From IMG/VR virus record IMGVR_UViG_3300034104_005543, positions 32,001 through 96,000 of that record: a stretch of DNA of 64,000 nt; one strand, 5' to 3'. Origin of the DNA: a virus (lineage: Duplodnaviria > Caudoviricetes). Positions 1 through 26,701 of this stretch are shown here, piece by piece. The number at the start of each line of letters is the position of its first letter. The first letter of the stretch is position 1. The notes beneath the pieces were generated by a model that saw only the letters and a list, made by a program, of their open reading frames with translations, was not told the origin of the DNA and made no database searches. The translations under genes and the position numbers were made by a program.

Positions 1-49
1 ATATGAAATAGAAAATCTTAGAATAATAAACAAGAAAGTCAAAAAATGA
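1..49 (+). CDS. 3' end of an upstream gene truncated by the window edge
   Basis: Open frame from nt 2 (YEIENLRIINKKVKK) ends at TGA 47-49, overlapping the next ATG as ATGA, typical of translational coupling. Confidence 0.4.
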   Translation, partial: YEIENLRIINKKVKK

Positions 50-483
50 AAGTAACAGATAAGCAGTTTACAAAAGATTACAAAATTTTAGAAGCTGTTT
101 GTAAAGAACTTTCTGTTGAGTTAAAGAGAGAAGGTAAATCGTACTTTTATTATCCTGATAGTAAAGTTATTGCTTTACCAAAGTGTGTAAAAAGTAAAGC
201 TAGCCTTATTGTAGGTCTGTTACATGAAATAGGACATGTTATTCACCGCGATAGTATTTTTGGAGGTCTTTCTAAAACTGAAAACCACAATCGTGTTATC
301 ATAGTAGAAGGTGAATACAAAGCTTGGGAGCACGGGTACTATCTTTTACAAAAATTAAATTTAGAACATTATAATAATTTCTATATTAAAGAATGGGCTA
401 AATCTTGGAATCTTTATATTAAACACGTAAAAGATTGTCACAAACTTGAGTTATTGAATATGCGTGTCTCAATTATTGATTAA
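46..483 (+). CDS. small zincin-like metallopeptidase (ImmA/IrrE-like HExxH)
   Basis: LLHEIGH motif followed by a downstream E (EGEYKAW); 145 aa. Confidence 0.6.
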   Translation: MKVTDKQFTKDYKILEAVCKELSVELKREGKSYFYYPDSKVIALPKCVKSKASLIVGLLHEIGHVIHRDSIFGGLSKTENHNRVIIVEGEYKAWEHGYYLLQKLNLEHYNNFYIKEWAKSWNLYIKHVKDCHKLELLNMRVSIID

Positions 484-8137: not shown

Positions 8138-8796
8138 TGGATACAATTGGAGTAATAGTAGCACGTCTTAGAAAAATAGCAAAAGCAATAAGTCCTGATA
8201 GTTTTTTAACTGACAGAGATTTGTATTCTATTTTTCTAAAATACGCATATCTGTATATAAGAAGACAGGATAATCTAAACCGTATTATGAAATACCAAAC
8301 GGTGTTTCAGGTACTTCCTTGTGTAGAACTTATAGAAGTTGATAAAGTAGAAGCATGTTGTGTTGGAATACAATCTGGTTGTACAATAAGAAGAACTAAA
8401 GATAAACTACCAAAAGTAATAGATGGTGCATACGGTCCTTTGTTTAGAAATGTTACATCAATAGATAGAGGTACTTCTTTTACTTTTACAGCACCTTCTA
8501 TTTATGTAGAAATGACTAAAAGCAAAAGCTTTAAGTTTAATACAAACAAATATGCTTGGTATATAGATGGGTATCTTTATTTTCCTAATATCGATTGGGA
8601 TGCAATACTTATTGAAGCTTTGTTTGAAATAGATTTAGGTGTCCAAGATGGTTGTAGAAATATGCAACAAACTATTTCCCGTGTACCACCCTATTTGTAT
8701 TCAGAAATTGAAAACGGATTTAAGCAAGATCTTGCTGTTATGGAACAGTTACCTGCAGATCCTATGATTGATAAACAAGATAATACAAGACAATGA
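8137..8796 (+). CDS. tail ring / tubular protein (crAss-like)
   Basis: 219 aa; LPCVELIEVD, RTKDKLP and YIDGYLYFPN motifs; synteny between IHF-like and stabilisation genes. Confidence 0.55.
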   Translation: MDTIGVIVARLRKIAKAISPDSFLTDRDLYSIFLKYAYLYIRRQDNLNRIMKYQTVFQVLPCVELIEVDKVEACCVGIQSGCTIRRTKDKLPKVIDGAYGPLFRNVTSIDRGTSFTFTAPSIYVEMTKSKSFKFNTNKYAWYIDGYLYFPNIDWDAILIEALFEIDLGVQDGCRNMQQTISRVPPYLYSEIENGFKQDLAVMEQLPADPMIDKQDNTRQ

Positions 8797-13000: not shown

Positions 13001-15046
13001 GATATTTATATAGGAAGACACACAGAAAAAAATCCTTTCTTCTTTTTTAGAAATTGGTTACAGAATAGACCTGACGGGTATGAAATAGATTATAGAAAAT
13101 ATAACGCTACTGTTTTTAGACCTAGATTCTGGATGAATACTGAAAGTTACGATTTAAACGATTTTTTTAAAGGTTTAATGAGTAGTTTAGGAGGCTTGGC
13201 TTCATCTGTATTTACTTCTAATCCAGCAGGACCTACAATACCAATACAACCAGATCAAGAGGGTGTAGTACCTTCTGATTTTAGTAACCTAGATCAAGAT
13301 GGTCAAAACTGTACATTTAACCCTCTTAATTTTAGAAAATTACGATTAGGAGTAAAGAATGCTTTTATGTATCTCTTCTACTCTGGTGTTCGTGATTTTT
13401 TTGTAGAAAGTGAAATAAACGTTGACTTACGCGATTGGTTAGATGAAGATAGATATAGACACTATCACCCATACAATTACACAGACCTTGATAAATTATT
13501 TAACCCTGATGTAATAACTGAAAGAGAACAATACAGATATGATTTCTCACTAAGTCATAGTAAAATATTTTTTGATAAAATTTCTTGGGGTAATATTCAA
13601 CCTAGAACATATGATCCTATTACATACCTAGATTGTTTTACATACGATCCTAGTATGGTAGTGTATTCACTTCCTGACAACGGTTCTGTATCAGATCCTT
13701 GGAGAGTTTATCTTCCTGATAACTTTAAAATACTTTCAGGTGGTATTGTTAATATTAAAAACATTAACAAAAACGGTTCTATGATTGTTTTTAATGATAG
13801 ATCACCTGTAATGATTCAAGGTTCTGATTCTTTACAAACAGATCTTGGTACTAAAGTTACTTTAGGAGATGGTGGTTTGTTTGAACAAGCTCTACAAAAT
13901 ATATCATCTAGCGATCGTTCTTTTATGGAAGGTGCTTGTATAGATACTTTTGGTGTTATAAACTGTCCTGCTGGAGTATTCTTAATGTCTAATTCTCTGA
14001 AAAAAATATATAGAGTAGCAGGACAGGGTGCTTTAGAAGATATAACAGCAAAAGGATTAAAGTGGTGGTTTAATAACTACATGGGTTATAAAATACTAGA
14101 AGATTTTCCTAACTTTCCTGATACTAATAATCTTGCAGTAGGAATAGGATCTTTTATTAGTTATGACCACGAATCTTCTATTCTGTATTTTACAAAACGT
14201 GATTATGTAATTAATCCTCAATACAAGACTCTATGGGATTATTTCTATACAGGTAGAGGTAAGTTTACATTAGTAAGCAAGCAATTACCTGGTAGAAAAT
14301 TAAGAAACATTTCTTTAAATTCTCCTTACTTTATAGATGTATCATGGACTGTTAGTTATGACCCTAAACAGAATTTCTGGGTTTCTTTCCACGACTGGCA
14401 TCCTAATTACACTTTATCTTCCCGCACTAAATTTACTGCTATCAATGGTAAAGACTTCTGGAAGCATAATGTAAGATTTGATAGTTTCTGTAACTTCTAT
14501 GGTACTGATTATCCTTTTGAAGTAGAAGTACCTATAAATACTAAACAAGTTTCTATTATAGATTCTTTTGAATATTACTTAGACGCGGTTGTCTATACGG
14601 ATTCACCAGATGTTAGTTACACTCAACTAGATGGAAATTTTGATCAAGCGGTTGTATCCAATAAAGAGCAATGTTCGGGTTTATTAAATCTAGTACCTTA
14701 CCCTAGACAAAATCCTTATTTAGCAGCGTCTTATCCTACTACAGCAGGTAGCTCTATAAACATCTTAGTATCTAAAGAAGAAAACAAATACAGGTTTAAT
14801 CAATTCTACGACATAATAAACAATAGAGGAGAGAATACAGGTATTACTTCTCCTATATGGTTAGTAGGAAAAGACGGTTATAAAAAACAACTAAACCCTG
14901 CAGCAATAAATTACAATAAACCAGAGTTTCAGCAAAAAAGATTAAGAAATTACTTTCAGAAAGTATTTTTACGTAAAACTATCTCAGGAGCTGTTAACTT
15001 TGTATTTAAGATATTCAATACCAAATCTACTATTTCACCGCGATGA
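10019..15046 (+). CDS. tail stabilisation / muzzle-like protein
   Basis: 1675 aa; FVKGMMKD start, YWDDGRNPTRY, DEVYPFFIRF...SESYHIPGR, IRHHKFP, WTVSYDP...WVSFHDW motifs characteristic of crAss-like stabilisation proteins. Confidence 0.7.
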   Translation: MAENFQNLKQGESNTFVKGMMKDLNDSFLPEGAWSHARNAAVNTLQGDMATISNESSTLFCTSAPFPVIGYLFFNDDEWIIFSTDDSNNHEIGLYTESTCTYTKIVNDPCLNFSSSNPIRSGGVKDSFDCHRFFYWDDGRNPTRYLSPTSIPYKQICTPSPTGCSICTNILPLQLDCDQIRLTPKIKIPKVDIRKATYGGELINGSYQACVAYTINQQRFGDYYAITNPQPIFNHVGIGGAIEVSVTNLDTEYFSEFELVIVYTIAGNTIAKSFGFYATSNGAAPSQEATIGISIIPDSLLTVPLSNLPVRRPVYEKSDATYTVGDYMLRVGPRTRYSFNYQPTANNIRSKYVIWEVESNFYKNGGAVTGYMSDEVYPFFIRFLYDTGERSESYHIPGRAPVQTDLGIIPPGTGNNFDFAFNWQGEDTSIVTTNTSYQHIDTASKYEGQIIEEGEMSYWQSSERYPNDSVRYGSLCNDYIRHHKFPSRRTGNSWHHSNDGRQIRIMGVRFYNIAKPQMPNPTNPSVLIDVPGIVGYEILRGSREGNKTIVAKGIFNNLLVQGNDAIQNFPYNQVGPTEKLLQPANQPPNPAYKKGNCDAEGKTDRATFTRTEHYSFHSPDTQFKEPYLAPYEAKKYGIVRGELDRAIFSPVENHPRHKLPSDLSFFLSMIAGLVLGVKKASSEPTISTMTLPKTKGPELLNGGTTFPTGPLTAAQATQLTTYFTDILNNDIQNTIAPEIFRILANFTASINTSSATYVQPTIVPPPVALTSSGTLRNFINRTLGLATTTNAFELPTTTVTFNDSRYEGMPFPLKAFYQLPILLNSWSEATDEFLELLLKLVPYRQFAYQQRSHCLYKDYDNLFISRRKVFNSGYIGSGVFNAGNLRIDNTLRNKFVFVETQSLSFDHTGLLSPSDDTSRFTLGDANTPYGKDHINGLPVTGKNSATIYGALVNRIVNQYGQLDTINQIPISSHYIDSPNTNNTWVSSTGPLFGGDIYIGRHTEKNPFFFFRNWLQNRPDGYEIDYRKYNATVFRPRFWMNTESYDLNDFFKGLMSSLGGLASSVFTSNPAGPTIPIQPDQEGVVPSDFSNLDQDGQNCTFNPLNFRKLRLGVKNAFMYLFYSGVRDFFVESEINVDLRDWLDEDRYRHYHPYNYTDLDKLFNPDVITEREQYRYDFSLSHSKIFFDKISWGNIQPRTYDPITYLDCFTYDPSMVVYSLPDNGSVSDPWRVYLPDNFKILSGGIVNIKNINKNGSMIVFNDRSPVMIQGSDSLQTDLGTKVTLGDGGLFEQALQNISSSDRSFMEGACIDTFGVINCPAGVFLMSNSLKKIYRVAGQGALEDITAKGLKWWFNNYMGYKILEDFPNFPDTNNLAVGIGSFISYDHESSILYFTKRDYVINPQYKTLWDYFYTGRGKFTLVSKQLPGRKLRNISLNSPYFIDVSWTVSYDPKQNFWVSFHDWHPNYTLSSRTKFTAINGKDFWKHNVRFDSFCNFYGTDYPFEVEVPINTKQVSIIDSFEYYLDAVVYTDSPDVSYTQLDGNFDQAVVSNKEQCSGLLNLVPYPRQNPYLAASYPTTAGSSINILVSKEENKYRFNQFYDIINNRGENTGITSPIWLVGKDGYKKQLNPAAINYNKPEFQQKRLRNYFQKVFLRKTISGAVNFVFKIFNTKSTISPR

Positions 15047-18000
15047 AAAAATTACTTAAAGCTCAAAAAGGTACGCAATGGATAGGTCCTAGTGGTTATG
15101 TTGGTAAGTCCAATGTAAATAAACCTGCCGTAACAAAGGTAGAAGCTGCAGGTGTTTATGTAAACACTGTACCTCAAACAGAAGGAATGCAATATATTGA
15201 TAGTAGAACTCCTGAGCAAAAAAAAGCTGATGAAATAGCATACTTGCAAAGAAGAATGAATCCTTGGACTGATCCTTCTGCTTCAGGAGCTATGATATCT
15301 ATAGATCCTATAGGAGATGCTGTAAATCCTTTATTAGTTGCTGAATCTATTGCTTCTATACCAGGTCAGATTTTAGAAGGTGATTATTTTGGAGCAGGAA
15401 TGAATGCATTAGAAGCACTTCCTTTTGCAGGTTCAGCATTTAGAGGATTAAAAAGAACTAGATTCCCACACATAACTAATAGTAATGTTGATGCTAAAGA
15501 ACTATTTGATTTTAGCAGTACTACTTCTAATTCTATAAAAATAGATCCTACAAAATTAGAAGATGCTAAAGGATTTTTAAAAAGAAGACAATTTATTAAA
15601 GGTTTACAAAAAGAAGGCTTAATAGGAAAAGATTTTAATTTAGGTGATGTTAATTATGCTGCTAGAAGTACAGACAAAACAAATAAGCTAACACAGTTTG
15701 CTTTGAACAGAGAAGCAACTAGATTTAGAGGTGTTAAAGGAAGTGTACCTAAAGATGGTAAAGGTATTCAAGACAATACAGGGATTTCGTTTGATATGTC
15801 TAGACCTCATTATTATAATGAAATTTCTGAATTTGAAAACATGAAAAATGCAGGAGTTGATTTTAACGATCCTCTATCCATTGCAAAATATCAAGCTTCT
15901 CATGTTCCTATGGAACAATATGGTTATACATCAGGATTACCAGACAATAGATATTTAGGAGGTTTATATTTATCTTCTACTCCTAATTATTATGGAAACT
16001 ACCAAATAAGAATGACATCACCTAGAGATTATTCTACAGGTAATTATCAAAATTGGTTTAATAAATATTTTCATCCAGAAAATAATTTTGATGATTTATC
16101 TAAAGGATTTCGACGTTTTGATTTTAATCCTGTTCTTTCTTACGAAAGACCTATGGCTATGTATAAAGGAAGTACAAACGTTATGGGTAAAAGAGGTTCT
16201 AAAATGTTTGATGTAGACGAAAGCTTTCCTTTTATGGATTATAAAAATTTAACTCCCGAACAAAATTTGGAGTTTAAAAAATATATAGATGATTTATTAC
16301 AAGATTACAAAATAGGTTGGAGAGGTAAATACAAAAATGGTGGCTCATTACCAAAATATCAAGATAAAGGTTCCTGGAAAGGACCTGCTGGTTATGCAGG
16401 TTCTAATAGAAGTGTAGCAAAATCTACCGCAACTGCTGCTGGTGTTACTACTCAAAAATCACTACCCGTTAAAGTAGAGATAGAAGAAGATTTTGATAAT
16501 ACATATCAAACAGAAAAAGAACGACAACGTATAGTTCAACAACAGTATGAGCAATCTCAAAATCAAGGTTGGAGAGAACCTCAAGGTGGGGGTTTAATAT
16601 CTATAGACCCTATTGGTGACGCGGTTAATCCTCTTCTTACTATAGAAGGATTAGCTAACATACCTAGTGATATTTCAGAAGGTAATTATTTAAGTGCTGG
16701 AATGAATGCTCTTGAAGCAGTACCTTTTTTAGGTGCAGGTTTTAAAGGTGCAAAACAAGCGTCATCCTATTTTAATAAAATAGATAACGCATTATTACAA
16801 ATAGAAAAAGAGGGTTTGCAAAAAGGATTAACTCAGTTTGAAATTGCAAAAGAACAAATGGAAAAATTAGGCATAACAAGTAAACAAAGAAAAGGTTATT
16901 TGCCTATAGTATCCGAATTATTGACTGAGTATGTTGTACCTTATAGTTATGATAATGCTACAAAAAGAATTCTTCAAATACCCCAAAAAATAATTTTAGG
17001 TAAAACAAATTCAAAAATTTTAACAGATGACATAAGCAAAGTTATAATGTCAATAGATACTAAAAATCCATTGGTATCAACTAATAGATATGATGCATGG
17101 CGATTGTATAGTGGACTTCCTCAAAAATATAATACGTTTAGAATTGCTGAAACTGCTCCTATTAATCATCCTGCTTATACTCCCGAACAATTAAAAAATC
17201 TTGAAATATTTTCGATTAATAATGAAAATAGATTGTTAAATGACTTACCTAACATTGCTGATTTAGCTCCTTGGTTTTATTATAATCCTAAATATGCATC
17301 AGTGCAAGATTTAAAATTATTGAAAGAAGAAAAGAAAAAAATAGATGCTTTAGATAACAGTCTTCAAACTAAAGAAAGTGATTTTACCACTACTAATATA
17401 ATGGGTGGTTACAATCAGCGATTTTACAACAATGTAATGGAATATAATGATATATGGGATTTGGTTCCAGGTAACGTAAAACTAGAAAAATTTTTTGGTA
17501 AGCCTTTTATGTCACATGGTGTACTAGAATATAGTCCTAAAGAGTTTTCTGAATTAGTTACTAATTTAATTGCTCAAAGAGAAAATAACATTTTACGTAA
17601 CAATTCTGTACAGTATTTCAATCATTCAAATAATGCTGTTAAACTAAATATACTTAATCCTAGTAACTATACTAAACAGAGTTACCCTATGGGTGATTAT
17701 CTTCGCCATAATGTAAACTCTGCTGTTAAGCAAAAACAAAAAAATGGTGGTATGATAAGAAGAAAAGATGGTAGTTATTCTCGTAGAGGACTTTGGGACA
17801 ACATTCGTGATAATGCAGGTTCTGGTAAAAAACCTACCGCTGAAATGTTAAAACAGGAAAGAAAGATTAGAAATGAGAAGAAAGAAATGGGTGGTTTTTT
17901 TCCTACTTCAACAACAGGAGTACCATATCAAGATAAAGAGTATATGTATCAAGGAGGAGGAGAAACTGAAAACTGGTTAACTAAACTTCTTAATACACCT

Positions 18001-20736
18001 GCCGGAAATATACTTAAACAAACTTTAGCTGACCAAGTTAATGTAGTAGGTCCCGCTTATAATGCAACAACTCAAATACTAGAAAATAATCCTAGCGATT
18101 ATGCAAGAACAGTTAACATTGCTTTAGAAGGATTAAAATCACCAGCACCTTTTTGGGGTGACTTAGCTATAAACGCACTACAAGAAGGAGTATCTTATAT
18201 GGGTAAGAAAAACCCTGTCGGTATAGATAGGTCTTACGAAACTCATTTTAAAAACGAGAAAGGACCTAAATATCGAGAAGGAGGAGAGAATCCTGAAGAC
18301 TGGACTAAGTTTACAGCTTTTAATAAAACGCTTCCTAATAATTTAAGAGATGATAACTTTAAATATGGAGACTACTCATACTATGATTTGTATGGCATGT
18401 GGGAAGCTGCAGGAAAACCTAATTCATTTAAAGAAGTAAAAGACACAGAGTTTTTTCCGTTACAAGATGATGGTTTGTATCATGGATTTAGCGTAGGTAA
18501 AGATGGTATAGTGTTAAAGAGTAAAAACCACCCTTCTGTTGTTTATGAAGCGCTAGCAAGTCAACTTAGTCCCTATACAAAAGATCTATTACTTACACAA
18601 AGAGAAGATGGTAGATTACAGTATGTACCTAAAAAACAAGCTGGTGGTGAGAATCTAATAGACATGTATTACAAAGGTTCTAATTACCCTTATAGAATAA
18701 AAGACGAAACTAAAAGAAACGAGCATATAAAAAATATATTCTTTAGAGATTTAGATGAAATACCCAGAGAATATCTTACAGAGGAAAACATTGAACAAGT
18801 AAAGAATTTTTTTAGAAAGAAATACAGAGGGTATGGAACAGAAAGAGGTTATGACGTAGGAGACAATTACATTGGTTTTGATTACAAAGACTTCGATGAC
18901 AAAATGTTTGCTAAGTTAGTAGAAGAATATTTAGATCAAGTATATTCTGATGAAGCGCCTTTAATTGTAACAAACGGTATTGAATCTATTTTAGCAAAAC
19001 AACGCAAAAATAGAGCAAAAAAACGAGATGGTGGGTCTTCATCAGAGATAGACCCTTGGGTAGAATATCACAAAAAACTAAAATTATATAATCAATATAA
19101 TAATGAAGAACAACCAGAATATGAATTAATTATAGACAAAAATACATTCCCTAATGAATTTGAAGAATATACTCAACACGATGAAGCAGTTAAGAAATAC
19201 ACTCAACAAGCATTTGATAATGAAGATTTATTTGTTAAAGAATTTGCTAAAAAGTATGGTTTAGAAACAGAAAGAAAAACTTCTAAAGACTCTTTAAGAA
19301 TTAAAGGAAGAGTTCCTGAAAGCTTATCTGAAGAGTTTTATAAAGGAAAAGTAAAAGTATTAGAGGATATTATGGAAAGTAAAGATTATAAGGATAGACT
19401 TAATCGAAAATATTATTTAAATAACATGTATGCTAGACCAAATGTTAAATTAAACGAGTATTGGAAAACAAAAAAAGATCCTAACTTTTCAGTAGATGGA
19501 ATAAAACCAACATCTTGGGAAGAAAAAATTATCGAACAAGGAAGAACTATGGTACCAATTGGAAGTAATTCATATGGTACAATATACGGGCAACCTGTAG
19601 GAAATCCAACAACAACTGAAAGTACCACTTATTATAAACCTATTTTTCAAAAACCATTAATGCCAAAGCTTAAAAAAATGCCATTAAGAAATATAACTCA
19701 AATATCTTATGATAAACCAGAAAGAGAATTTGTACCTTTAGATATTCCTATACAAAAACCTGCAAGAAACCCTCCTCAGAAATTTTATTATGGAATGGAT
19801 AAAAAACAAGAAAAAAGAAGATTAGCTGGTAAACCATATACAGCACTTAACTCTTCAGGTAATGAAATATACATAGCTTCTGGTGATACAAGATTAGATA
19901 GCGACCCTGAAAACACAATAGGTTATAATAAAGGTAGAGCTTATGTAGAAGGAGATAGAATGGAGGAGTTTGAACCGACTAGAGATACTCAAAATAATCC
20001 TATTTCTAAAGAACAAATGGGCGGTAATATATACGATAAAGAAACTGATAATCTATTAGCTCAGATAGCTTCCATGATAGCTGATGGGGAAGACCCTGAT
20101 ATGTTAGCAGGTTCTTTAGTAGATACTGGTTATTCAGAAGAGGTAGTAGATTCTTTAGTAGAAGAAGCGATTGATAGATTATCAGAACTAGGTGATTACG
20201 AAGAAGAAGACATCAATCAAATAGAAGATATTAAAGTTCTTAGAGAAGGTGGTATTCCTGATAGATACAAAAACCAAGGTTTTACTAAAGTGGGTGCAAA
20301 ACGCAAATCTAATCGTCCTGGTAAAAAATGGATGGTACTTGCTAAAAAAGGCAACAAATATAAAATAGTGCACGGTGGTTATAAAGGGATGAAAGATTAC
20401 ACCCAGCATGGTTCAGAAGAAAGAAGAGAAAGATTCTGGGACAGAATGGGTGGTAAAAATTCTGCTAAAGCTAAAGATCAGTTTAGTCCTTTGTACTGGC
20501 ATAAAAGATTTGGTACTTGGCAAGACGGAGGTAAAACTCCTATTGAACACCCTGAAGGACAAAGAAAATTTCCTGGTAAAACAACTAGAATTCCTTCTAA
20601 CAGAATTACAATGGAAGGAATTAACTATCCTGTTTTAGCAATTGGAGATAATGGAAAAGCAAATTTAATGCTACCAGGTGAAGAATATTTGTATCTTGGT
20701 GTAAATTATGTAGATGAAGTTCCATTTTCTAAATAA
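15043..20736 (+). CDS. modular GG-punctuated putative virion cargo polyprotein
   Basis: 1897 aa, no Cys seen; ten xxxGG motifs separate unrelated domains; internal duplication. Confidence 0.6.
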   Translation: MKKLLKAQKGTQWIGPSGYVGKSNVNKPAVTKVEAAGVYVNTVPQTEGMQYIDSRTPEQKKADEIAYLQRRMNPWTDPSASGAMISIDPIGDAVNPLLVAESIASIPGQILEGDYFGAGMNALEALPFAGSAFRGLKRTRFPHITNSNVDAKELFDFSSTTSNSIKIDPTKLEDAKGFLKRRQFIKGLQKEGLIGKDFNLGDVNYAARSTDKTNKLTQFALNREATRFRGVKGSVPKDGKGIQDNTGISFDMSRPHYYNEISEFENMKNAGVDFNDPLSIAKYQASHVPMEQYGYTSGLPDNRYLGGLYLSSTPNYYGNYQIRMTSPRDYSTGNYQNWFNKYFHPENNFDDLSKGFRRFDFNPVLSYERPMAMYKGSTNVMGKRGSKMFDVDESFPFMDYKNLTPEQNLEFKKYIDDLLQDYKIGWRGKYKNGGSLPKYQDKGSWKGPAGYAGSNRSVAKSTATAAGVTTQKSLPVKVEIEEDFDNTYQTEKERQRIVQQQYEQSQNQGWREPQGGGLISIDPIGDAVNPLLTIEGLANIPSDISEGNYLSAGMNALEAVPFLGAGFKGAKQASSYFNKIDNALLQIEKEGLQKGLTQFEIAKEQMEKLGITSKQRKGYLPIVSELLTEYVVPYSYDNATKRILQIPQKIILGKTNSKILTDDISKVIMSIDTKNPLVSTNRYDAWRLYSGLPQKYNTFRIAETAPINHPAYTPEQLKNLEIFSINNENRLLNDLPNIADLAPWFYYNPKYASVQDLKLLKEEKKKIDALDNSLQTKESDFTTTNIMGGYNQRFYNNVMEYNDIWDLVPGNVKLEKFFGKPFMSHGVLEYSPKEFSELVTNLIAQRENNILRNNSVQYFNHSNNAVKLNILNPSNYTKQSYPMGDYLRHNVNSAVKQKQKNGGMIRRKDGSYSRRGLWDNIRDNAGSGKKPTAEMLKQERKIRNEKKEMGGFFPTSTTGVPYQDKEYMYQGGGETENWLTKLLNTPAGNILKQTLADQVNVVGPAYNATTQILENNPSDYARTVNIALEGLKSPAPFWGDLAINALQEGVSYMGKKNPVGIDRSYETHFKNEKGPKYREGGENPEDWTKFTAFNKTLPNNLRDDNFKYGDYSYYDLYGMWEAAGKPNSFKEVKDTEFFPLQDDGLYHGFSVGKDGIVLKSKNHPSVVYEALASQLSPYTKDLLLTQREDGRLQYVPKKQAGGENLIDMYYKGSNYPYRIKDETKRNEHIKNIFFRDLDEIPREYLTEENIEQVKNFFRKKYRGYGTERGYDVGDNYIGFDYKDFDDKMFAKLVEEYLDQVYSDEAPLIVTNGIESILAKQRKNRAKKRDGGSSSEIDPWVEYHKKLKLYNQYNNEEQPEYELIIDKNTFPNEFEEYTQHDEAVKKYTQQAFDNEDLFVKEFAKKYGLETERKTSKDSLRIKGRVPESLSEEFYKGKVKVLEDIMESKDYKDRLNRKYYLNNMYARPNVKLNEYWKTKKDPNFSVDGIKPTSWEEKIIEQGRTMVPIGSNSYGTIYGQPVGNPTTTESTTYYKPIFQKPLMPKLKKMPLRNITQISYDKPEREFVPLDIPIQKPARNPPQKFYYGMDKKQEKRRLAGKPYTALNSSGNEIYIASGDTRLDSDPENTIGYNKGRAYVEGDRMEEFEPTRDTQNNPISKEQMGGNIYDKETDNLLAQIASMIADGEDPDMLAGSLVDTGYSEEVVDSLVEEAIDRLSELGDYEEEDINQIEDIKVLREGGIPDRYKNQGFTKVGAKRKSNRPGKKWMVLAKKGNKYKIVHGGYKGMKDYTQHGSEERRERFWDRMGGKNSAKAKDQFSPLYWHKRFGTWQDGGKTPIEHPEGQRKFPGKTTRIPSNRITMEGINYPVLAIGDNGKANLMLPGEEYLYLGVNYVDEVPFSK
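15058..16755 (+). repeat. two diverged copies of a ~130-aa module (about 15058-15455 and 16353-16755)
   Basis: W.GP.GY.G.N...AAGV...ISIDPIGDAVNPLL..E..A.IP..I.EG.Y..AGMNALEA.PF.G..F.G.K occurs twice; cores start at 15295 and 16597. Confidence 0.85.
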
Positions 20737-20765
20737 ATTTCGTAAATTAGATAAACTATAGTTAT

Positions 20766-21578
20766 ATGAAAAAGTCGTCAAAACCCTGTTATAAGTGCGG
20801 TGGTAATGTAAAAATGCAAGAAGGTGGTTCTGCAGAACAAGACCAAATTATGCAAGTAATTCAAATGTTCGCAGACATGCAAGGTGTTGATCCTGAAGAA
20901 ATAATTCAACAACTGCAAGGATTATCTTCAAAAGAACAACAGCAAGCTATTCAGCAGATGATGCAAGTAGTACAGCAAGGTCAAGGGCAACAGATGAGAA
21001 TGGGTGGTAGTAGATATCAAGAAGGTGGGAGTACTGAGCAAGATCAAATAATGCAGATTATTCAAATGTTTGCTGAGATACAAGGTGTAGATCCCCAAGA
21101 AATTATGCAGAGACTTCAGCAATTAAGTCCTGAACAACAGCAACAAGCTATACAACAAATGGCGCAGGTTGTTCAAGAAGCTATGCAACAACAACAGGGT
21201 ATGCCTCAACAAGGTATGCAACAGCAGATGATGCCACCTGAACAACAAGCAATGATGGCGCAAGGTGGTTCTTGGTACTATGGTGGTTATATGAATCACC
21301 CTATGATGGAACCTAATGGTTATCAGCACCCTGTAGCATTATTTGAAATGGGTGGTATGAATCAAATGAAGCAAGGTGGTATTCATATTGACCCTCGTAA
21401 AAAAGGTACATTCAAAGCTCAAGCTACTAAAATGGGTATGAGTGTTCAAGAAGCAGCGCGTCATATTCTTAGAAATAAAGATAAGTATTCTACCGCGATG
21501 GTTCGTAAAGCAAACTTTGCTAGGCAAGCAAGTAAATGGAAAAATGAATTTGGTGGAGATATATACGTAGAAGATTAA
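20766..21578 (+). CDS. Gln/Met-rich GG-motif putative cargo protein
   Basis: 270 aa; nine xxxGG motifs; C-terminal basic GGIHIDP...KANFARQASKWK domain. Confidence 0.6.
   Translation: MKKSSKPCYKCGGNVKMQEGGSAEQDQIMQVIQMFADMQGVDPEEIIQQLQGLSSKEQQQAIQQMMQVVQQGQGQQMRMGGSRYQEGGSTEQDQIMQIIQMFAEIQGVDPQEIMQRLQQLSPEQQQQAIQQMAQVVQEAMQQQQGMPQQGMQQQMMPPEQQAMMAQGGSWYYGGYMNHPMMEPNGYQHPVALFEMGGMNQMKQGGIHIDPRKKGTFKAQATKMGMSVQEAARHILRNKDKYSTAMVRKANFARQASKWKNEFGGDIYVED
20817..21179 (+). repeat. tandem duplication, 201-nt period
   Basis: QEGGS.EQDQIMQ.IQMFA..QGVDP.EI.Q.LQ.LS..QQQQAIQQM.QVVQ-like unit at 20817 and 21018. Confidence 0.85.
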
Positions 21579-21583
21579 GTATT

Positions 21584-22312
21584 ATGAAAGGAACAACTAC
21601 ATATAAAATATGTCATCAGTGTTCTGTCAATTTGCCAGAAAACAGAAAAAACTATCGTTCTTCTAGAATACATAGCAAAGAGGTTTTTCACATGGTTTGT
21701 AGAACATGCGAAGATTCTATTAAATTAAAACCTGAGTGGTTTGAAGGCAAGTTATTGTGTCATAAATGTGCTGACTACAAAGATGAAGTTGTTTTTACAC
21801 CAAATAACACTTTAAATGCTACAAGAAATTATAGAAGGTATATATGCAATAATTGTAATAAAATACGACAACATAAATTAAATGCTTCTTTTTCTGAAGA
21901 TAAAAAATTAGATAAAATTTTAACTAGTAGATACAGAGGTGCTGTAGATAGATCTTTGAAATCTAATATAGAATTTTCTATAAGTAAAGCATTTCTTCAT
22001 GATTTATATATAAAACAAAAAGGAAAATGTGCCTTATCAAATTTAGATATGACTTTTGAATTAAATGCAGGAAGAACTCCAACTAATTTAAGTGTGGATA
22101 GAATAAATCCAAACGAAGGATATACAGAAAATAATACACAATTAGTATGTATGGCTATAAACCAAATGAAAAGCGATTTTACGAATGATGAGATATATAA
22201 ATTTTGTAAAAATTTTGTTCTCACATATGAGGAAAAAAATAAAAGCGAAGAAAACTTTGCTAAAGAATTTGGTGGTCAATTAGATGATCAAGATTTAATG
22301 GAACTTTATTAA
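21584..22312 (+). CDS. free-standing HNH-like endonuclease with Zn-finger CxxC pairs
   Basis: Four N-terminal CxxC pairs; KQKGKCALS...LSVDRINPNEGYTENNTQLVCMAINQMK is a beta-beta-alpha-Me nuclease signature. Confidence 0.75.
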   Translation: MKGTTTYKICHQCSVNLPENRKNYRSSRIHSKEVFHMVCRTCEDSIKLKPEWFEGKLLCHKCADYKDEVVFTPNNTLNATRNYRRYICNNCNKIRQHKLNASFSEDKKLDKILTSRYRGAVDRSLKSNIEFSISKAFLHDLYIKQKGKCALSNLDMTFELNAGRTPTNLSVDRINPNEGYTENNTQLVCMAINQMKSDFTNDEIYKFCKNFVLTYEEKNKSEENFAKEFGGQLDDQDLMELY

Positions 22313-22313
22313 C

Positions 22314-24341
22314 ATGAAGAAAAAAGATTTTCCTTATTTGCCTAAAGCTCAAGTAGGTAAAGAACATGACGGACTTACTGTAGCAGAAAGAGCTCTACTA
22401 CTTGCCGATGATTTATTTGAATCTACTACTACATCAAATTTAGTAAAATCTAAAAGCGTTAAATCAGAATCTAATAGCAAAACTTTTACTAAAAAAGATT
22501 CTGTTAAAGAAACAAGAAAGCCTATACTAATAGATGTAGTTAATAGTATATATAGTGAATCTTCTCCTCTAGGAAATACTCAATATATTCCTGTAGGAGA
22601 TCCTAGATATGATAAGGCTAGAAGAAAAAGACCTCCAGGAGACTTTATAACTTACTGGAATGAAGATTCTCAAACATGGTTAAATACTTATAACCCTGAG
22701 AATTATAAAAATGTTTCTGTAATTGGAGTTCCTTCAGACAGAATAGGTGATCAAGGAGAATGGATAAGAAGAGATCAGCTTAAAGAGAAAGTTAGTTATG
22801 CAGGTCGCGGATATAGGAACAATCCTGATTATGAAATCGGAGGTTCTACAGAACCTACAAAAGAATTTTATGATTTTTATGAAAAAGTAAAGAAAAAATA
22901 TCCTAATGCAAGTGAAGAGCAAATTTTAAATGTTTGGGAAAAAAGTTATTTAAAAGGAGAAAGTTATAAAAATCCTTTTTTAGCAGTTACTCCTTTAATA
23001 CCTGGTTCACAGTCTACCTTTGAACAATATGGTATAAGTGAACCTTATATTAATAACGCATCGTATTTTAATGAAACACCGTATCCTCAAAAGGTAAGAG
23101 ATATCGATTATAATGATCCTTTAGTTTATCCTACTGTTGTTGATAATGAAGAAATACCAACTAGATTTACAAATCCTTTTTTACCTGAATCAACTAAAAA
23201 ATTACCGGGATATTTATCACAATTAGATAGAATGCCTACTAGATCTGTTACTCAAATAGGTAGTCCTTCTAGTCTTGTGTATGATCCTAAAAAGGCTAAA
23301 AGTGTAAGTAAAGCAATTAATAAATTAGCTAAAGAAGATGCTGAATACAGAAGAAACCAGCGTGAAGCAGATGAAGTTATTCTTCCTACTGAAGAATCAA
23401 CTAGTTGGAGAGTAAATGAAGAAGCACCTACTTCTAATGCTGATATGTACGCTTCTGAAATTTCAAAAGACTGGGAAACTGTTGTACCTGAATTTAGAGT
23501 AAAAACTAAACCTAAAGTTGATACAAGTCCTGTTGTAGTAGACATAACATCTAATCCCAATTATGATTGGGGGTATGCTATGAATAATAAAGGTAACATT
23601 GAATATAAAACAGAATCCCCTAATTTTATTGAAAGAAACGCTCCTGTATATAAAAAAGGAGGCTATTTACCTAAAGCTTTGTTTGGTAACATGTTCAAAA
23701 AAAATAAACAACCTTATGGTCCTACTGCATTTACAGATCAGTTTTCTCAATGGCAAGATAATAGTCAAACTGCTAAAAATGCACAAAGACAACCTCAAGC
23801 AAATCCTATGTTTATGTCAGGTCAAAACGCACCTATGACATCAAATGTAGATAATATACAAGGTACAGGAACAGAACTTATTTTAAATCTTAATAAACCT
23901 TCTAATACAAATACTAAAGTAGAAGAAGATCCATTAAGTTGGTATGAACAAGATGAAGCATTTGATCCTCTTAAAGTAAATTTTGATAAAAACACAAAAT
24001 CAGAACCTTCTTTTGGTCAAAAAGTAGGGGCTTTTGCTAAAGGTATGTGGAAAGGAGCTAATGCAGATAACATACTACTAGGTACAAAAGCTCTTAATAA
24101 TTTATTAGAAAAAACACCGGACTATGATCAGTTTCAAAGAAACTATAAAGAACCAGGTCAATCTATGAGTAGAGGAGATTGGACTACTAATCAAGGTTTC
24201 TTACAACCTAATCGTTTAGGTTATTTTGATAAGTTTTCAGTAGGAACAGGGAGTATGCAATTTGGTGGTGAGGTAGATATGACCGATGATGAAATTTATG
24301 AGTTTTTGGCAGCGGGTGGAGAATTGGAGTTTATAGATTAA
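22314..24341 (+). CDS. GG-motif putative cargo protein
   Basis: 675 aa, no Cys seen; LPKAQVG, YEIGG, YKKGGYLPKA and MQFGG motifs; low-complexity segments. Confidence 0.55.
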   Translation: MKKKDFPYLPKAQVGKEHDGLTVAERALLLADDLFESTTTSNLVKSKSVKSESNSKTFTKKDSVKETRKPILIDVVNSIYSESSPLGNTQYIPVGDPRYDKARRKRPPGDFITYWNEDSQTWLNTYNPENYKNVSVIGVPSDRIGDQGEWIRRDQLKEKVSYAGRGYRNNPDYEIGGSTEPTKEFYDFYEKVKKKYPNASEEQILNVWEKSYLKGESYKNPFLAVTPLIPGSQSTFEQYGISEPYINNASYFNETPYPQKVRDIDYNDPLVYPTVVDNEEIPTRFTNPFLPESTKKLPGYLSQLDRMPTRSVTQIGSPSSLVYDPKKAKSVSKAINKLAKEDAEYRRNQREADEVILPTEESTSWRVNEEAPTSNADMYASEISKDWETVVPEFRVKTKPKVDTSPVVVDITSNPNYDWGYAMNNKGNIEYKTESPNFIERNAPVYKKGGYLPKALFGNMFKKNKQPYGPTAFTDQFSQWQDNSQTAKNAQRQPQANPMFMSGQNAPMTSNVDNIQGTGTELILNLNKPSNTNTKVEEDPLSWYEQDEAFDPLKVNFDKNTKSEPSFGQKVGAFAKGMWKGANADNILLGTKALNNLLEKTPDYDQFQRNYKEPGQSMSRGDWTTNQGFLQPNRLGYFDKFSVGTGSMQFGGEVDMTDDEIYEFLAAGGELEFID

Positions 24342-24358
24342 TTTTGTATTTTTAGATT

Positions 24359-26701
24359 ATGATGAGACGTGTAAAAATTACTAAACTTCCTGAAGCTGGT
24401 TATGGTAGACCCATATCAGAAGGGTGGAGTACAAAAAATAAAAATGGTTATACTGCTAGTTTGCTATCAGATAAGACTTCTTCTCCTGTAAGAAAAACAC
24501 TTACTAGTGTTCCTAGAGGAGAAGCTAATGTAGAAGCAGAAGGTGGAGAAACCGTAGTTGGTGATTTTCAAAAAGACGGTCTTGATGAATTTTACAACAT
24601 TCAAGGACCCCGTCACGCAGATGGTCCCGGTGTACCTCTAAACTTACCAGAGTCTTTTATTTTCTCAGACACAAAGAAGATGAGAATCAACAATCCTGAT
24701 TTGTTAAAAATCTTTGGTAAGTCTAAAGGTTCTTATACTCCAGCGGCATTGTCTAAAAAATATCAACTAAACGATTACAACGCTACTCTAACTAATAAAG
24801 ATGCTGATACTTTAGAGAAAGAGACTGCGGAATTAATGATTAATAACAACCGTGATAAATTATCGAAATTATCTATTATACAAGAAGTTTATTTAAAGGG
24901 TGGTAATGTACCTAAATTCGCTTATCCCTACTTAGAAAAGAAAGGTATTAGTACTAGCCAGTTAGCAACTGACCAAGATGACATAAATGAAGAACAGTAT
25001 AGATATGGTGGGTATTTAGATAAATATCAAAATGCAGGTTCAACAAAATCTTCTAAAAAAGGCGCTACTGAACAACCTATATATACATTACCATTAGCAG
25101 ATAATAGTTATATAGATCGAGGTTCAAACACTGAACTAAACAATTCTTTTCCTATGTCAGACAATAACGGAGCTTTTTTTGAACAAGGTAGTAGAATTAT
25201 AAACACATACAATAATGGTTTACCTAACGATACCTCATATATATATATGAAAAATATTGATAAAGGAGGTAATCCTCTTACTGAATCTTTTTATTATAAT
25301 ACAGGGCAAAACATGCCTGATAAAAAACCGGTATCAAACTTTCAAGGTTCAAATCAAAATACTAATCAATATTATTTTGATGCTATAAATAGATTAACAG
25401 GTTTAGATTCATTAAATAAAAAGAAAGTTGGTGGGTATTTACCTAAAGCTCAAGTAGGGGACGATCGTTTTAATCCCGCAGATACTACAAAAGCAAGAAT
25501 TGTAGATAAAATTCCTGAAGGTTTTAAACCATACCAAGAAGATCCTAATTATGCACGGAAAATAACACAAGGTCGACAAATAAATGCTGCTACGCAAGGT
25601 ACTCATACAATCGAAGGTGTTATTAATAATAAAGGAACATATTCTACTTTTCATAAAGCAGCCGTAGAAGCAGGTATTACAGATCCTGAAGAATTAAAAA
25701 AAGCAGCTGCTGACTATTTAGGTCCTAATCCTAGATTACCATCTAAAAAAGAAGTAGTTAGAGTACAACCTGTTGCACCTGCTGCTCCTTCAGAACCATT
25801 AGAAAAAATGGTTCCTAGAAGTGTTACGATTCCACCTCCTTCTGTAGAAAGAACAGGACCTCCTGCTTTTGGTACACCTGAACAAGAAACTACTGATGAT
25901 GAACAAAAACAAACCTACGACTACTCTCAATATCCCAGTCAACCTTTCTTTAAATCAGATGTAGTAGATTTATATGGTTCAGCTTTTTCTTTATTTGATA
26001 ATACTGATGTAGGTCCTACATATCAAAGAGTAGCAGGTCCTAGGACTATTAATCCTGTATTAGAAGACCCTACTCGTGCTATTGCTAATAGACAAGAAGG
26101 TGCTGCTAGAGCTACAGACGCTATAAAAGCATTTGGTAGAAACCCTTCATCTGCAGCATCTTACATGCAAGGTTTAGCAGCAGGTGATACCGCTGATATA
26201 ATAAGTGGTGTAAATCAAAGAAACATAGGTACCTTAAATCAAGCGCAAGGGTTTAATGCTCAAATGTTAGGTAACTATGATAGAAGTCGTCAAATGGCTG
26301 ATAGACAATATGATGTAGATTTAGCTACTTACTTGCAACAAAAAGCTAATACTAGAGCTCAAAAGAGAAATGTATTTACTAACAAGTTATCTCAAGCTTA
26401 TACTAATCAAGGTAATGTAAACTTGTTAAACGCTCAAGATCCAAGTTTTATGTTTAATACTAGAGCAAATAATATTCGGTTTACAGGACAACCTGGTTCT
26501 GGACAATCTTCAACACAACCTGGTTTTGCAGGAAAAAATTACAAAGACATGACTCCTGCAGAAAAAGATGAATATTTAAAAGAATTAGATATACAAGATA
26601 AGGAATCACGTATAGCAAGTCGTAATCAATTTGGTTATGTACCTAGACGAGGAGGTGCTGGTTGGAGACAACAAGCAGGTTTACCTGGTAGTAGACAGTA
26701 G
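24359..26701 (+). CDS. putative virion cargo/ejection protein
   Basis: 780 aa, no Cys seen; ANVEAEGGETV...GPRHADGPGVP...FIFSD N-terminal domain recalled from crAss-like cargo proteins; GG motifs; Q/N/A-rich C-terminus. Confidence 0.55.
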   Translation: MMRRVKITKLPEAGYGRPISEGWSTKNKNGYTASLLSDKTSSPVRKTLTSVPRGEANVEAEGGETVVGDFQKDGLDEFYNIQGPRHADGPGVPLNLPESFIFSDTKKMRINNPDLLKIFGKSKGSYTPAALSKKYQLNDYNATLTNKDADTLEKETAELMINNNRDKLSKLSIIQEVYLKGGNVPKFAYPYLEKKGISTSQLATDQDDINEEQYRYGGYLDKYQNAGSTKSSKKGATEQPIYTLPLADNSYIDRGSNTELNNSFPMSDNNGAFFEQGSRIINTYNNGLPNDTSYIYMKNIDKGGNPLTESFYYNTGQNMPDKKPVSNFQGSNQNTNQYYFDAINRLTGLDSLNKKKVGGYLPKAQVGDDRFNPADTTKARIVDKIPEGFKPYQEDPNYARKITQGRQINAATQGTHTIEGVINNKGTYSTFHKAAVEAGITDPEELKKAAADYLGPNPRLPSKKEVVRVQPVAPAAPSEPLEKMVPRSVTIPPPSVERTGPPAFGTPEQETTDDEQKQTYDYSQYPSQPFFKSDVVDLYGSAFSLFDNTDVGPTYQRVAGPRTINPVLEDPTRAIANRQEGAARATDAIKAFGRNPSSAASYMQGLAAGDTADIISGVNQRNIGTLNQAQGFNAQMLGNYDRSRQMADRQYDVDLATYLQQKANTRAQKRNVFTNKLSQAYTNQGNVNLLNAQDPSFMFNTRANNIRFTGQPGSGQSSTQPGFAGKNYKDMTPAEKDEYLKELDIQDKESRIASRNQFGYVPRRGGAGWRQQAGLPGSRQ

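Follow-up and report, generated by a model that had tools for sequence, protein, structure and literature searches.

We analyzed a 64,000-nucleotide stretch of viral DNA (bases 32001-96000 of the 115,486-base virus record IMGVR_UViG_3300034104_005543; hereafter the window) and found that a short peptide ending in two glycines marks the module joints and most of the termini of four large proteins encoded by neighboring open reading frames (ORFs). We refer to this peptide as a seam. Its consensus is [M/F/Y]-[Q/A/K]-x-G-G-[aromatic/E]-[I/V/T/L]-[P/D], and the sequence L-P-K-A-Q-x-G(G) is a variant of it (K-A-Q-x-G-G beside K-M-Q-x-G-G). In these ORFs, unrelated modules are strung together, which are exchanged, duplicated, acquired and lost among related phages, with the seams at the borders. 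Judged by its capsid and ring genes and by a gene order like that of crAss001, the window belongs to a crassvirus, and the position of the four genes indicates that their products are most likely packed into the particle and injected; they are called cargo proteins here.

Gly-Gly seams in the window and in related phages

The seams fall within five adjacent ORFs (P0001 to P0005; Table 1), which a preliminary description of the window had read as polyproteins punctuated by about 25 copies of a motif of the form [K/M/Y/F]-[Q/R/E/K]-x-G-G. The sites it listed were all present, for example KYKNGG (with its Gly-Gly, GG, at 16339), KQKNGG (17746), YMYQGGG (17953), KYREGG (18280), KKQAGG (18643) and KEQMGG (20020), and likewise those with their GG at 17890 (KKEMGG), 19030 (KKRDGG), 20248 (VLREGG) and 20527 (TWQDGG). 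There were nine GG in 20766-21578, DYEIGG, VYKKGG and SMQFGG in 22314-24341, and QYRYGG and KKKVGG in 24359-26701. The motif was thus real, but the true seams number about 17-23 and not 25, and the statement that they are often followed by (Y)LPK[AY]QxG was too strong, with four internal cases and two ORF N-termini. Likewise, four of the five ORFs encode cassette cargo proteins, while the one at 21584-22312 (P0003) is HNH/endonuclease VII-like and has a single, weakly seam-like GG. The reported rarity of the motif after about 26700 was borne out: it ends after 26701, and the ORFs that follow have hydrophobic GG contexts.

The occurrence of GG was compared with that in within-protein shuffles. 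The five ORFs had 35 GG runs against 21.2 +/- 3.9 in the shuffles (3 of 2000 reached 35), and the rest of the genome had 81 against 76.1 +/- 7.5. Among the four residues preceding GG, K, R, Q, E, D, N, M or Y made up 74% in the five ORFs and 35% elsewhere in the genome (background 47%). The pattern [KMYF][QREK]xGG was found 18 times in the five ORFs as compared to 1.26 +/- 1.13 in the shuffles, none of the 2000 reaching 18, and six times in the other 116 ORFs (32,723 amino acids, aa), which corresponds to densities of 4.66 and 0.18 per 1000 aa. We also built a weight matrix from the GG flanks only, trained it solely on 80 related phage loci and applied it to the genome of the window. GG sites in the five ORFs had a mean score of 1.81 versus -1.41 elsewhere (Mann-Whitney p = 8.2e-10), and 17 of 37 sites scored at least 2, relative to 3 of 87 elsewhere. 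By shuffles and by matrix alike, the motif is therefore enriched over background GG frequency. At least 8 of the 37 GG were ordinary and not seams, four of them inside predicted folds (aa 62 and 181 of the 780-aa P0005; aa 1778 and 1803 of the 1897-aa P0001). The five ORFs are somewhat rich in Gly (6-10%) and P0002 is rich in Gln and Met, as would suit a pattern that is a mere by-product of Gly/Lys/Gln-rich low complexity. We give that explanation practically no weight: no composition-preserving shuffle out of 2000 reached the observed count, a matrix derived from other phages picks out the sites, and the residue preferences are position-specific.

The 80 viral loci were obtained by a search with an alignment of P0005 relatives, a search with the single protein having found none, and comprised up to 10 kb on each side; they were not dereplicated. 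ORFs of at least 100 aa were called greedily and numbered by slot relative to the P0005-like ORF (slot 0). GG runs were 1.26, 1.63 and 1.71 times the expected number in slots -2, -1 and 0, and M, F, Y or W stood at position -3 of GG in 41, 39 and 28% of cases in these slots versus 8, 5 and 1% in slots +1 to +3 (background 12%). The consensus of 1898 distinct sites was [M/F/Y]-[Q/A/K]-[Y/M/F/E/D]-G-G. At 485 distinct strict sites, M/F/Y at -3 stood at 3-4 times and Q at -2 at 3.4 times background, position +1 was enriched in Y, W, M, F and E and never held K (0/485), +2 favored I, T, V, Y and L, and +3 favored P and D; most of the motif information sits N-terminal of GG.

The ends of the relatives' proteins followed a similar grammar. 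ORFs in slot 0 begin M-x-R-R-V-x-I-K-x-L-P-K-A-x-T-G, those in slot -1 begin M-K-K-R-V-R-I-Y-K-A-(Q-E)-G-G, and those in slot -2 often begin M-K-K-Y-x-I-x-x-L-P-R-x-x-Q-x-G-G. In each of the three cargo slots, GG closes a basic N-terminal leader of some 15-20 aa. In 25 of 67, 48 of 61 and 51 of 65 distinct ORFs of slots -2, -1 and 0, no more than 20 aa separated the last GG from the C-terminus; slots +1 and +2 had 5 of 62 and 3 of 57. What follows the last GG is conserved too (for example, F-L-A-x-G-G-x-V-E-Y-L), and successive seams were 12 or fewer residues apart in 20 of 357 cases. The ORFs of the window obey the same terminal grammar; in P0004 the last GG is six residues from the end, and the C-terminal 58 aa are common to ORFs of 13 relatives. 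Seam-like contexts were weak in the cargo ORFs of phi14:2. Within the sequences compared, the seam motif is a trait of the clade.

Seams at the borders of exchangeable modules

Five pieces that P0001 has in common with relatives (aa 162-434, 900-951, 1077-1201, 1730-1831 and 1834-1894) start or end within about 4 aa of a GG. Module 900-951 is 72% identical to its counterpart in locus L065, and module 1077-1201 is shared with L044. The 61-aa cassette at 1834-1894 recurs in about 30 loci, where it occupies aa 27-87 of upstream cargo ORFs; seams of the Q-M-K-K-G-G type follow it there and, when it is internal, GG precedes it. Duplications within the window obeyed the same borders. The N-terminal 138 aa of P0001 are repeated (aa 4-138 align with 436-572; 43% identity, E 1e-24), the repeat starting 2 aa behind the seam at 433-434. 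Similarly, two tandem repeats in P0002, 77% identical (E 4e-15), each begin directly after a seam.

The borders of one module could be read from its stand-alone relatives. DUF5754 (PF19058) was matched at aa 1754-1802 of P0001 with 36.8 bits against a cut-off of 27.4 (E 4e-9), and with 42.3 bits when the module was isolated. The cassette has 112 relatives of 90-289 aa, the stand-alone forms being 91-98 aa long. Among 14 relatives read, nine end exactly at the W that comes before Q-D-G-G in P0001, and in three, the start M-A-[I/V]-P falls on the residue that R-E-G-G precedes in P0001. In four fused forms I-P is immediately preceded by GG, and four have x-x-G-G after the W. Since the ends of the stand-alone proteins coincide with the seam borders, the seam is added only where modules are strung together. 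DUF5754 is also very basic (isoelectric point, pI, 10.4), about 90 aa long and 70-80% identical across more than 100 protein clusters, a conservation that is unusually high for a phage protein of unknown function, and contigs of 196 kb and 343 kb are among those that carry it as a gene of its own.

The AlphaFold2 model of P0005 has folds at aa 44-204, 411-459 and 523-704, and a predicted local distance difference test score (pLDDT) below 50 at 1-43, 205-414, 460-522, 705-726 and 753-780. P0005 thus has conserved domains at both ends, the C-terminal one helical, and between them a linker rich in seams; its seams at 217 and 358 are in low-confidence linkers, the first 13 aa behind a folded domain, and G-G-Y at 217-219 is the same in all 10 sequences aligned and conserved down to 31% identity. 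In a model of P0001 aa 1662-1897, the seam at 1736 forms a coil that joins a helical module to the DUF5754 fold (pLDDT about 94). That fold encloses the plain GG at 1778 and 1803, and the seam at 1829 opens a low-confidence stretch. In total, all four seams examined were in coil or low-confidence linkers and all four non-seam GG were inside folds; for these seams, the possibility raised earlier that the motifs fall inside folded domains was not borne out. Among the relatives, 8.6% of internal alignment ends in cargo ORFs lay within 3 aa of a GG as compared to 5.3% at random; the values for downstream ORFs were 2.6% and 2.5%.

A natural exchange was found in a contig of run X2, from another lake sample (depth 5.55). 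In this contig, nucleotide 17869 of the window is joined in frame to 21384, with 29 other letters between. The joint reads K-A-K-Y-E-D-G-G-G-I and resumes at H207 of P0002, one residue past the window's seam at 204-205. This in-frame joint indicates that 3.5 kb of cassettes were exchanged seam to seam, the variant carrying a seam of its own, although the swap is seen in a single contig of 85% likeness. In run X13, three contigs continue past the terminal W of DUF5754 into A-E-G-G and then into unlike sequence. Two other joints, 15069-17730 (X13) and 16109-22000 (X3), were not counted, as their sides were short (20-27 letters), and the contig comparison bears only on the covered parts of the window. 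Taken together, module matches, DUF5754 ends, repeats, AlphaFold2 models, alignment ends and the natural swap uphold the preliminary description in placing the motifs at the borders of unrelated domains.

A DNA-level repeat or recombination signal at the seams was also considered and rejected: the glycine codons are of ordinary usage and the flanks differ. The position of the seams in predicted disorder between folds, the swapping of modules at them and the tandem seams, which could be scars, would all agree with passive flexible Gly-Gly linkers left by module shuffling, with no partner and no cutting. We regard this as improbable. A passive linker would not keep preferences at -3, -2, +1 and +2 and exclude K at +1 across 485 sites, it would not keep G-G-Y-L-P-K-A-Q down to 31% identity, and it would not occur at protein ends; moreover, there is no DNA-level repeat to drive recombination.

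Uncut joint or cleavage site

The reading that we favor, tentatively and with a little less than even confidence, is that the seam is not cleaved in the particle and serves both as a joint and as a docking handle. The two glycines would permit a tight turn, as the residue pattern (not a model) suggests, and the bulky residues that flank them would form a small sticky face. Through this face, the module string would attach to a site that recurs within the head, portal or tail, or else to further seams, while the short unfolded joint would let the modules thread one by one through the tail. The solved portal-bound fragment of the crAss001 cargo protein gp45 comprises residues 425-552, according to the available text of the structural paper (PMC10172136). 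The sequence of gp45 at 425 begins A-F-G-G-W, and since the solved fragment spans the GG at 427-428, the particle holds this GG uncleaved. A second piece of gp45 that was solved, 214-245, starts four residues downstream of a GG at 209-210. In the window, seams of P0002 are only 6-8 residues apart, the tails after the last GG are conserved and both sides of GG are constrained, all of which speak for an uncut seam. A multivalent tag, the second idea of the preliminary description, fits the evidence at least as well as cutting does.

Several points weigh against the uncut handle. It has no known receptor, and AlphaFold2 predicted no fold or turn at the seams, only low confidence. The motif information is mostly N-terminal of GG, as at many protease sites, and the hydrophobic residue directly after GG would suit a zinc protease. 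HExxH is far more frequent in the relatives' cargo than expected (33 versus 1.4), and Y-H-E-A-[F/W]-H is present in a giant protein of the virion region in every crassvirus checked. Seams match the exact ends of stand-alone proteins, as a releasing cut would need. Moreover, the uncut GG is one seam, in gp45, a protein compared here by analogy and with no demonstrable homology to the window's ORFs, and the evidence bears on the particle only, before injection.

These points are largely those that make cleavage possible, though we hold it doubtful. If the seams were protease sites, cleavage behind G-G, or between its two glycines, would break the polyproteins into numerous small effectors, either while the head matures or once the cargo is injected. 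The enzyme could be the conserved virion zincin (Y-H-E-A-[F/W]-H), a zincin cassette, an accessory zincin such as that encoded at 46-483, or a host enzyme. The basic leaders of about 15-20 aa that end in GG, in three cargo slots and in crAss001 gp45, resemble cleaved leaders; the ends of autonomous proteins coincide exactly with seams; and specificity lies mainly upstream of GG, with a hydrophobic residue after it and no K at +1 (0/485). A small zincin encoded in the window's own genome, whose best family, below threshold, is MPTase-PolyVal, and the HExxH of relatives (33 versus 1.4 expected, in 26 of 80 loci) could supply the enzyme. Processing by zincins (PMC5512222) and cleavage of polymerase fusions (10.1101/2020.03.07.982082) have been proposed. 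On the other hand, the crAss001 particle as solved shows gp45 uncleaved at the GG at 427-428, cuts at seams 6-8 aa apart would yield useless peptides, and conserved tails behind the last GG would be discarded. The giant proteins that the papers expect to be cleaved carry no seams, and 25 of 28 HExxH segments are without a Pfam family. The preliminary description, which took the ORFs for polyproteins cut into injected effectors, thus keeps its strings of modules and likely virion cargo, and cutting is left unsupported; the uncut seam-like GG of gp45, the close seams and the conserved tails argue against general cutting inside the particle. In one version of cleavage, which we judge unlikely, a virion zinc protease (the Y-H-E-A-[F/W]-H domain or a zincin cassette) would cut after Gly-Gly following injection or late in head maturation, the seams being the recognition sites of a hitherto undescribed crassvirus processing system; a dozen or more effectors with native ends would be freed from the 1897-aa polyprotein, and the GG leader would be a removable loading signal.

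A search of the genome for a protease, which had been suggested, gave no family that cuts at di-Gly among 121 ORFs. Pfam scans of these ORFs gave no match to the clan CE families Peptidase_C5, C48, C57 and C63 at E <= 0.001-0.01, although a divergent enzyme could escape, and none to the C39 peptidase; no prohead protease family was matched in Pfam and PHROG scans of the head module and the 121 ORFs. Genes with HExxH do exist in the window, as described earlier. One of them, P0125, encodes the accessory zincin, whose best Pfam match was PF18818 (MPTase-PolyVal; 18.6 bits versus a cut-off of 27.5, E 0.002, profile positions 3-111 of 126). PF18818 also matched 9 of 29 members of the P0125 family, all below the cut-off. 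However, a protein search of 25 related records, 15 of them at least 90% complete, did not find P0125, nor did family and profile comparisons find it in 16 other related near-complete, seam-bearing genomes; it occurred in 1 of 17, its own. Since those 16 genomes bear seams, P0125 cannot be the general partner of the seam and was rejected as a conserved seam protease. Within the head module, the gene for P0125 (H-E-I-G-H) directly follows those for the capsid protein and a metallophosphoesterase, and its family comprises 34 representatives of about 145 aa.

The signature Y-H-E-A-[F/W]-H is also found at aa 2157 of crAss001 gp47 and in the relatives' downstream giant ORFs. A zincin-like domain adjoining the RNA polymerase, with the fused crAss polymerase proteins likely to be cleaved, is described in the phi14:2 preprint (10.1101/2020.03.07.982082). 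A second HExxH is at aa 217 of the 1991-aa ORF, and there is one in phi14:2 gp076. Of the 28 HExxH segments in the relatives' cargo, 25 matched no Pfam family and three touched metallopeptidase families below the cut-off; the segments may belong to cell-wall or host-directed effectors. One recurrent unnamed HExxH cassette, G-x-L-P-H-E-x-S-H-S-x-D-R-P, was seen in at least six loci (L028, L051, L072, L076, L079 and L081) and had no Pfam match. Between the portal and capsid genes, a 402-aa ORF upstream of the window (L003:10102-11310; genome 28102-29310) is very acidic (pI 4.6, D+E 23%) and present in 15 relatives; it is probably a scaffolding protein and not a protease. Its conserved GG (aa 171) was rejected as a seam, for it belongs to a conserved block that reads Y-V-A-D-G-G-T-D-L in the relatives.

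Crassviruses are among the most abundant phages of gut and water, and how they load and inject several megadaltons of protein is not understood. Here, one short peptide marks the joints and most ends of the cargo in the first slot, with a variant form extending from lake phages to crAss001. For experiments, the seam is a target for mutation and a bait with which to fish for a receptor or a protease; in metagenomes, it can help to delimit effector modules that are so far unknown, of which there are hundreds. Cut seams would amount to a phage polyprotein system not seen before, and uncut ones to a novel type of signal for docking or threading cargo. In either case, the seam could serve to load foreign proteins into phage particles.

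Genome context and likeness to known systems

The sequencing runs that hold the window derive from lake and fresh water. A Pfam scan matched PF23898 Crass_capsid (3.7e-33), PF25702 CrAss_Ring_2 (3.8e-13) and PF24228 CrAss_Ring_1 (1.1e-8), all above their cut-offs, and PHROGs matched the terminase and the portal. On the + strand, ring 2, ring 1 and a muzzle-like protein are followed by the five ORFs and then by ORFs of 959, 2422, 3725, 730 and 1991 aa, several of them giants (Table 1). The capsid proteins of related phages are 72-75% identical to that of the window, and their cargo ORFs share scattered modules only. With P0005 and a relative's homologue as queries, tblastn against 50,697 phage records gave 0 matches, and thus no cultured relative was found.

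Table 1. Cargo proteins, seams and neighboring features, in window coordinates
Feature	Position	Strand	Basis
P0125, accessory 145-aa zincin, candidate protease	46..483	+	H60, E61, H64, E90 invariant in 29 relatives
CrAss_Ring_2 and CrAss_Ring_1 genes	8137-10019	+	Pfam
Muzzle-like virion protein, 1675 aa, directly upstream of P0001	10019..15046	+	phrog_37948 virion structural protein 1.2e-48; crAss001-like order
P0001, 1897-aa cassette cargo protein, ~13 modules split by seams	15043..20736	+	ORF call; internal repeat; module matches to relatives
Seam Y-K-N-G-G (P0001 aa 433), then S-L-P-K-Y-Q	16330..16344	+	matrix 3.6
Seam Q-K-N-G-G (P0001 aa 902)	17737..17751	+	matrix 2.4
Seam Y-M-Y-Q-G-G-G (P0001 aa 971-973)	17944..17961	+	matrix 2.4
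Seam Y-R-E-G-G (P0001 aa 1080), start of module 1077-1201	18271..18285	+	matrix 4.1
Seam K-Q-A-G-G (P0001 aa 1201), end of module 1077-1201	18634..18648	+	matrix 2.2
Seam E-Q-M-G-G (P0001 aa 1660), helical module starts behind	20011..20025	+	matrix 2.7
P0001 DUF5754 cassette (aa 1738-1826), seams V-L-R-E-G-G / W-Q-D-G-G either side	20254..20520	+	PF19058; relatives; AlphaFold2
P0001 C-terminal 61-aa cassette (aa 1834-1894), module commonest in relatives	20542..20724	+	~30 loci
P0002, 270-aa Gln/Met-rich cargo protein, nine GG	20766..21578	+	Q 20.7%, M 10.7%; two tandem repeats
P0002 N-terminal seam pair 8 residues apart: Y-K-C-G-G, K-M-Q-E-G-G	20790..20828	+	matrix 5.0, 4.4
P0002 seam pair 7 residues apart: M-R-M-G-G, R-Y-Q-E-G-G	20994..21029	+	matrix 4.3, 5.8
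Seam M-A-Q-G-G (P0002 aa 167)	21255..21269	+	matrix 3.8
Seam M-K-Q-G-G (P0002 aa 204), right border of natural 3.5-kb swap	21366..21380	+	matrix 3.0
P0003, HNH/endonuclease VII-like ORF among cargo genes	21584..22312	+	phrog_1035 8.7e-22; phrog_3118 HNH 1.5e-15
P0004, 675-aa cargo protein, N-terminal L-P-K-A-Q-V-G leader	22314..24341	+	ORF call; conserved acidic C-terminal tail
Seam Y-E-I-G-G (P0004 aa 176)	22830..22844	+	matrix 2.2
Seam Y-K-K-G-G (P0004 aa 449), then Y-L-P-K-A	23649..23663	+	matrix 5.4
Seam M-Q-F-G-G (P0004 aa 651), just before acidic C-terminal tail	24255..24269	+	matrix 6.4, genome's highest
P0005, 780-aa cargo protein, last ORF bearing seams	24359..26701	+	1173 relatives
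P0005 folded N-terminal domain (aa 44-204), holds non-seam GG aa 62 and 181	24488..24970	+	pLDDT 83-92
Seam Y-R-Y-G-G (P0005 aa 217), then Y-L-D-K-Y-Q	24998..25012	+	matrix 5.7
Seam K-K-V-G-G (P0005 aa 358), then Y-L-P-K-A-Q-V-G	25421..25435	+	matrix 2.5; low-confidence linker
First seam-free ORF downstream, 959 aa	26772..29651	+	hydrophobic GG contexts; slot relatives begin M-A-T-Y-L-Q-G
H-E-A-W-H, aa 684 of 3725-aa ORF	38989..39003	+	crassvirus-wide Y-H-E-A-[F/W]-H zincin signature; motif-level, no Pfam match

Searches for known folds and families returned little. P0005, P0001 and the muzzle-like ORF had no sequence relatives in PDB, and the whole AlphaFold2 model of P0005 had no Foldseek match in PDB at E <= 0.001; for its residues 555-654, VIA-align listed only long-helix look-alikes (Z <= 8). 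No usable ESM Atlas match was obtained for the 61-aa C-terminal cassette of P0001, and for 11 of the 13 P0001 modules nothing in Pfam was above threshold. The C-terminal module of P0002 matches phrog_20603.

P0003 is not a cassette protein. Its C-terminus, K-E-F-G-G with an acidic tail, is weakly seam-like (a single GG, matrix score 0.35) and resembles the end of P0002, N-E-F-G-G-D-I-Y-V-E-D, and there were weaker PHROG matches to sigma-70 decoy and Srd anti-sigma families. Two origins are conceivable for P0003: a homing element that took over a copy of the end of the gene it entered, or a nuclease packed into the particle. Elsewhere in the window, the DNA polymerase gene is split into two parts on the minus strand (61548-62768 and 59676-60458, both phrog_1252), with a GIY-YIG/NUMOD homing-endonuclease ORF (60494-61450) between the halves. 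In relatives, ORFs of about 211 aa stand directly after the P0005-like gene (L010:13483-14118, L011:7032-7673, L031:13028-13663 and L040:5579-6229) and begin M-A-T-[Y/F]-[L/I]-Q, as does the large gene that follows. These shared first residues suggest mobile endonuclease genes that, on insertion, duplicated the opening codons of the gene they target.

The nearest comparison is with crAss001, in which the muzzle gene gp44 is followed by gp45 (cargo C1, a virion cargo protein), gp46 (cargo C2) and the polymerase-associated giants, as described in the available text of Bayfield et al. 2023 (PMC10172136). Since the gene order matches, the five ORFs occupy the C1 slot, after the muzzle gene and before the polymerase-associated giants. 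The slot holds a single gp45 in crAss001 and, in the window, four ORFs of exchangeable cassettes (3622 aa in total, the HNH gene left out). The basic N-terminus of gp45 ends F-D-T-G-G, a hydrophobic-x-x-G-G ending of the kind seen in the window's cargo, and gp45 has 20 GG runs versus 13.3 expected, in [F/Y]-G-G contexts that gp46, gp47, gp49 and gp50 are without. These include F-S-A-Y-G-G 209, L-K-A-F-G-G 332, W-N-A-F-G-G 427 and M-F-A-Y-G-G 562, with the bulky residue at -1 rather than at -3 as in the window. Long stretches between the docked pieces of gp45 are unresolved (PMC10172136). The likeness is an analogy, as homology between gp45 and P0005 could not be shown: PF25725 crAss_CARG1 matched neither the genome of the window nor G001 and G005 at E <= 1, while the controls crAss001 (2.6e-69) and phi14:2 (1.2e-12) were matched; a Pfam scan of P0005 gave 0 families; and a 36-sequence profile matched neither PDB nor crAss001.

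The cargo ORFs also recall the polyvalent proteins, large phage proteins of unrelated domains thought to be injected together with the DNA (Iyer et al. 2017, PMC5512222). Both are built of small autonomous modules. The available text of that paper describes the domains and proposes zincin processing; it describes no junction peptide and has 0 occurrences of 'glycine' and 'linker', while in the window a seam is found at the joints. The words 'glycine', 'protease' and 'proteoly' likewise occur 0 times in the available text of PMC10172136, and full-text searches, together with these term counts in the two papers, found no published description of the seams. Furthermore, the putative MPTase-PolyVal-type zincin of the window is a separate gene and not a domain of a cargo ORF as in polyvalent proteins. 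DUF5754 was the only domain named by Pfam in the window's own cargo ORFs. Of 15 relatives' cargo ORFs scanned, seven had Pfam matches, comprising Amidase_2, SLT (2), SET (3), ADPrib_exo_Tox (above cut-off), ART-PolyVal (just below cut-off), LysM and DUF5872, a repertoire like that of the polyvalent proteins. Two kinds of domain were combined in three of them (SLT with ART-PolyVal, SET with SLT, and ADP-ribosyltransferase with DUF5872). ADP-ribosyltransferase or SET domains were seen beside cell-wall hydrolases in L045:3474-7382 (aa 598-760), L019:590-5527 (aa 1138-1279), L014, L009 and L021, and by their domain matches they are candidate injected host-modifying enzymes.

The internal proteins of T4, packed in the head and ejected from it, share a short N-terminal capsid-targeting leader, and a dedicated prohead protease cuts the head proteins of T4 and giant phages after Glu. 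The window resembles these systems in that one short consensus is reused and serves as a terminal leader, but its motif is centered on Gly-Gly and is internal as well as terminal. Processing directed by Gly-Gly is known from the polyprotein proteases of adenovirus and African swine fever virus, from ubiquitin-like tails and from double-glycine leaders cut by C39 peptidases. As in these Gly-Gly-X systems, the seams have G-G at the putative P2-P1, upstream specificity and leaders that end in GG; unlike them, the seams are constrained downstream of GG too, and the hydrophobic residue of the Gly-Gly-X consensus sites is one place nearer to GG. In double-glycine leaders, which pair with a C39 peptidase, position -4 from the cut is hydrophobic, whereas in the seam the corresponding position (-2 from the first G) is Q, A or K, so that the seam is not a C39 leader by this measure. 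Finally, the cargo-loading peptides of encapsulins, whose shells share the capsid fold of phages, and the repeated shell-binding motifs of carboxysome CsoS2 are short Gly-containing peptides, often repeated, that dock disordered cargo inside a protein shell. They have no sequence likeness to the seams, and the parallel would be one of function, which is the role that our favored reading would give to an uncut seam in the particle.

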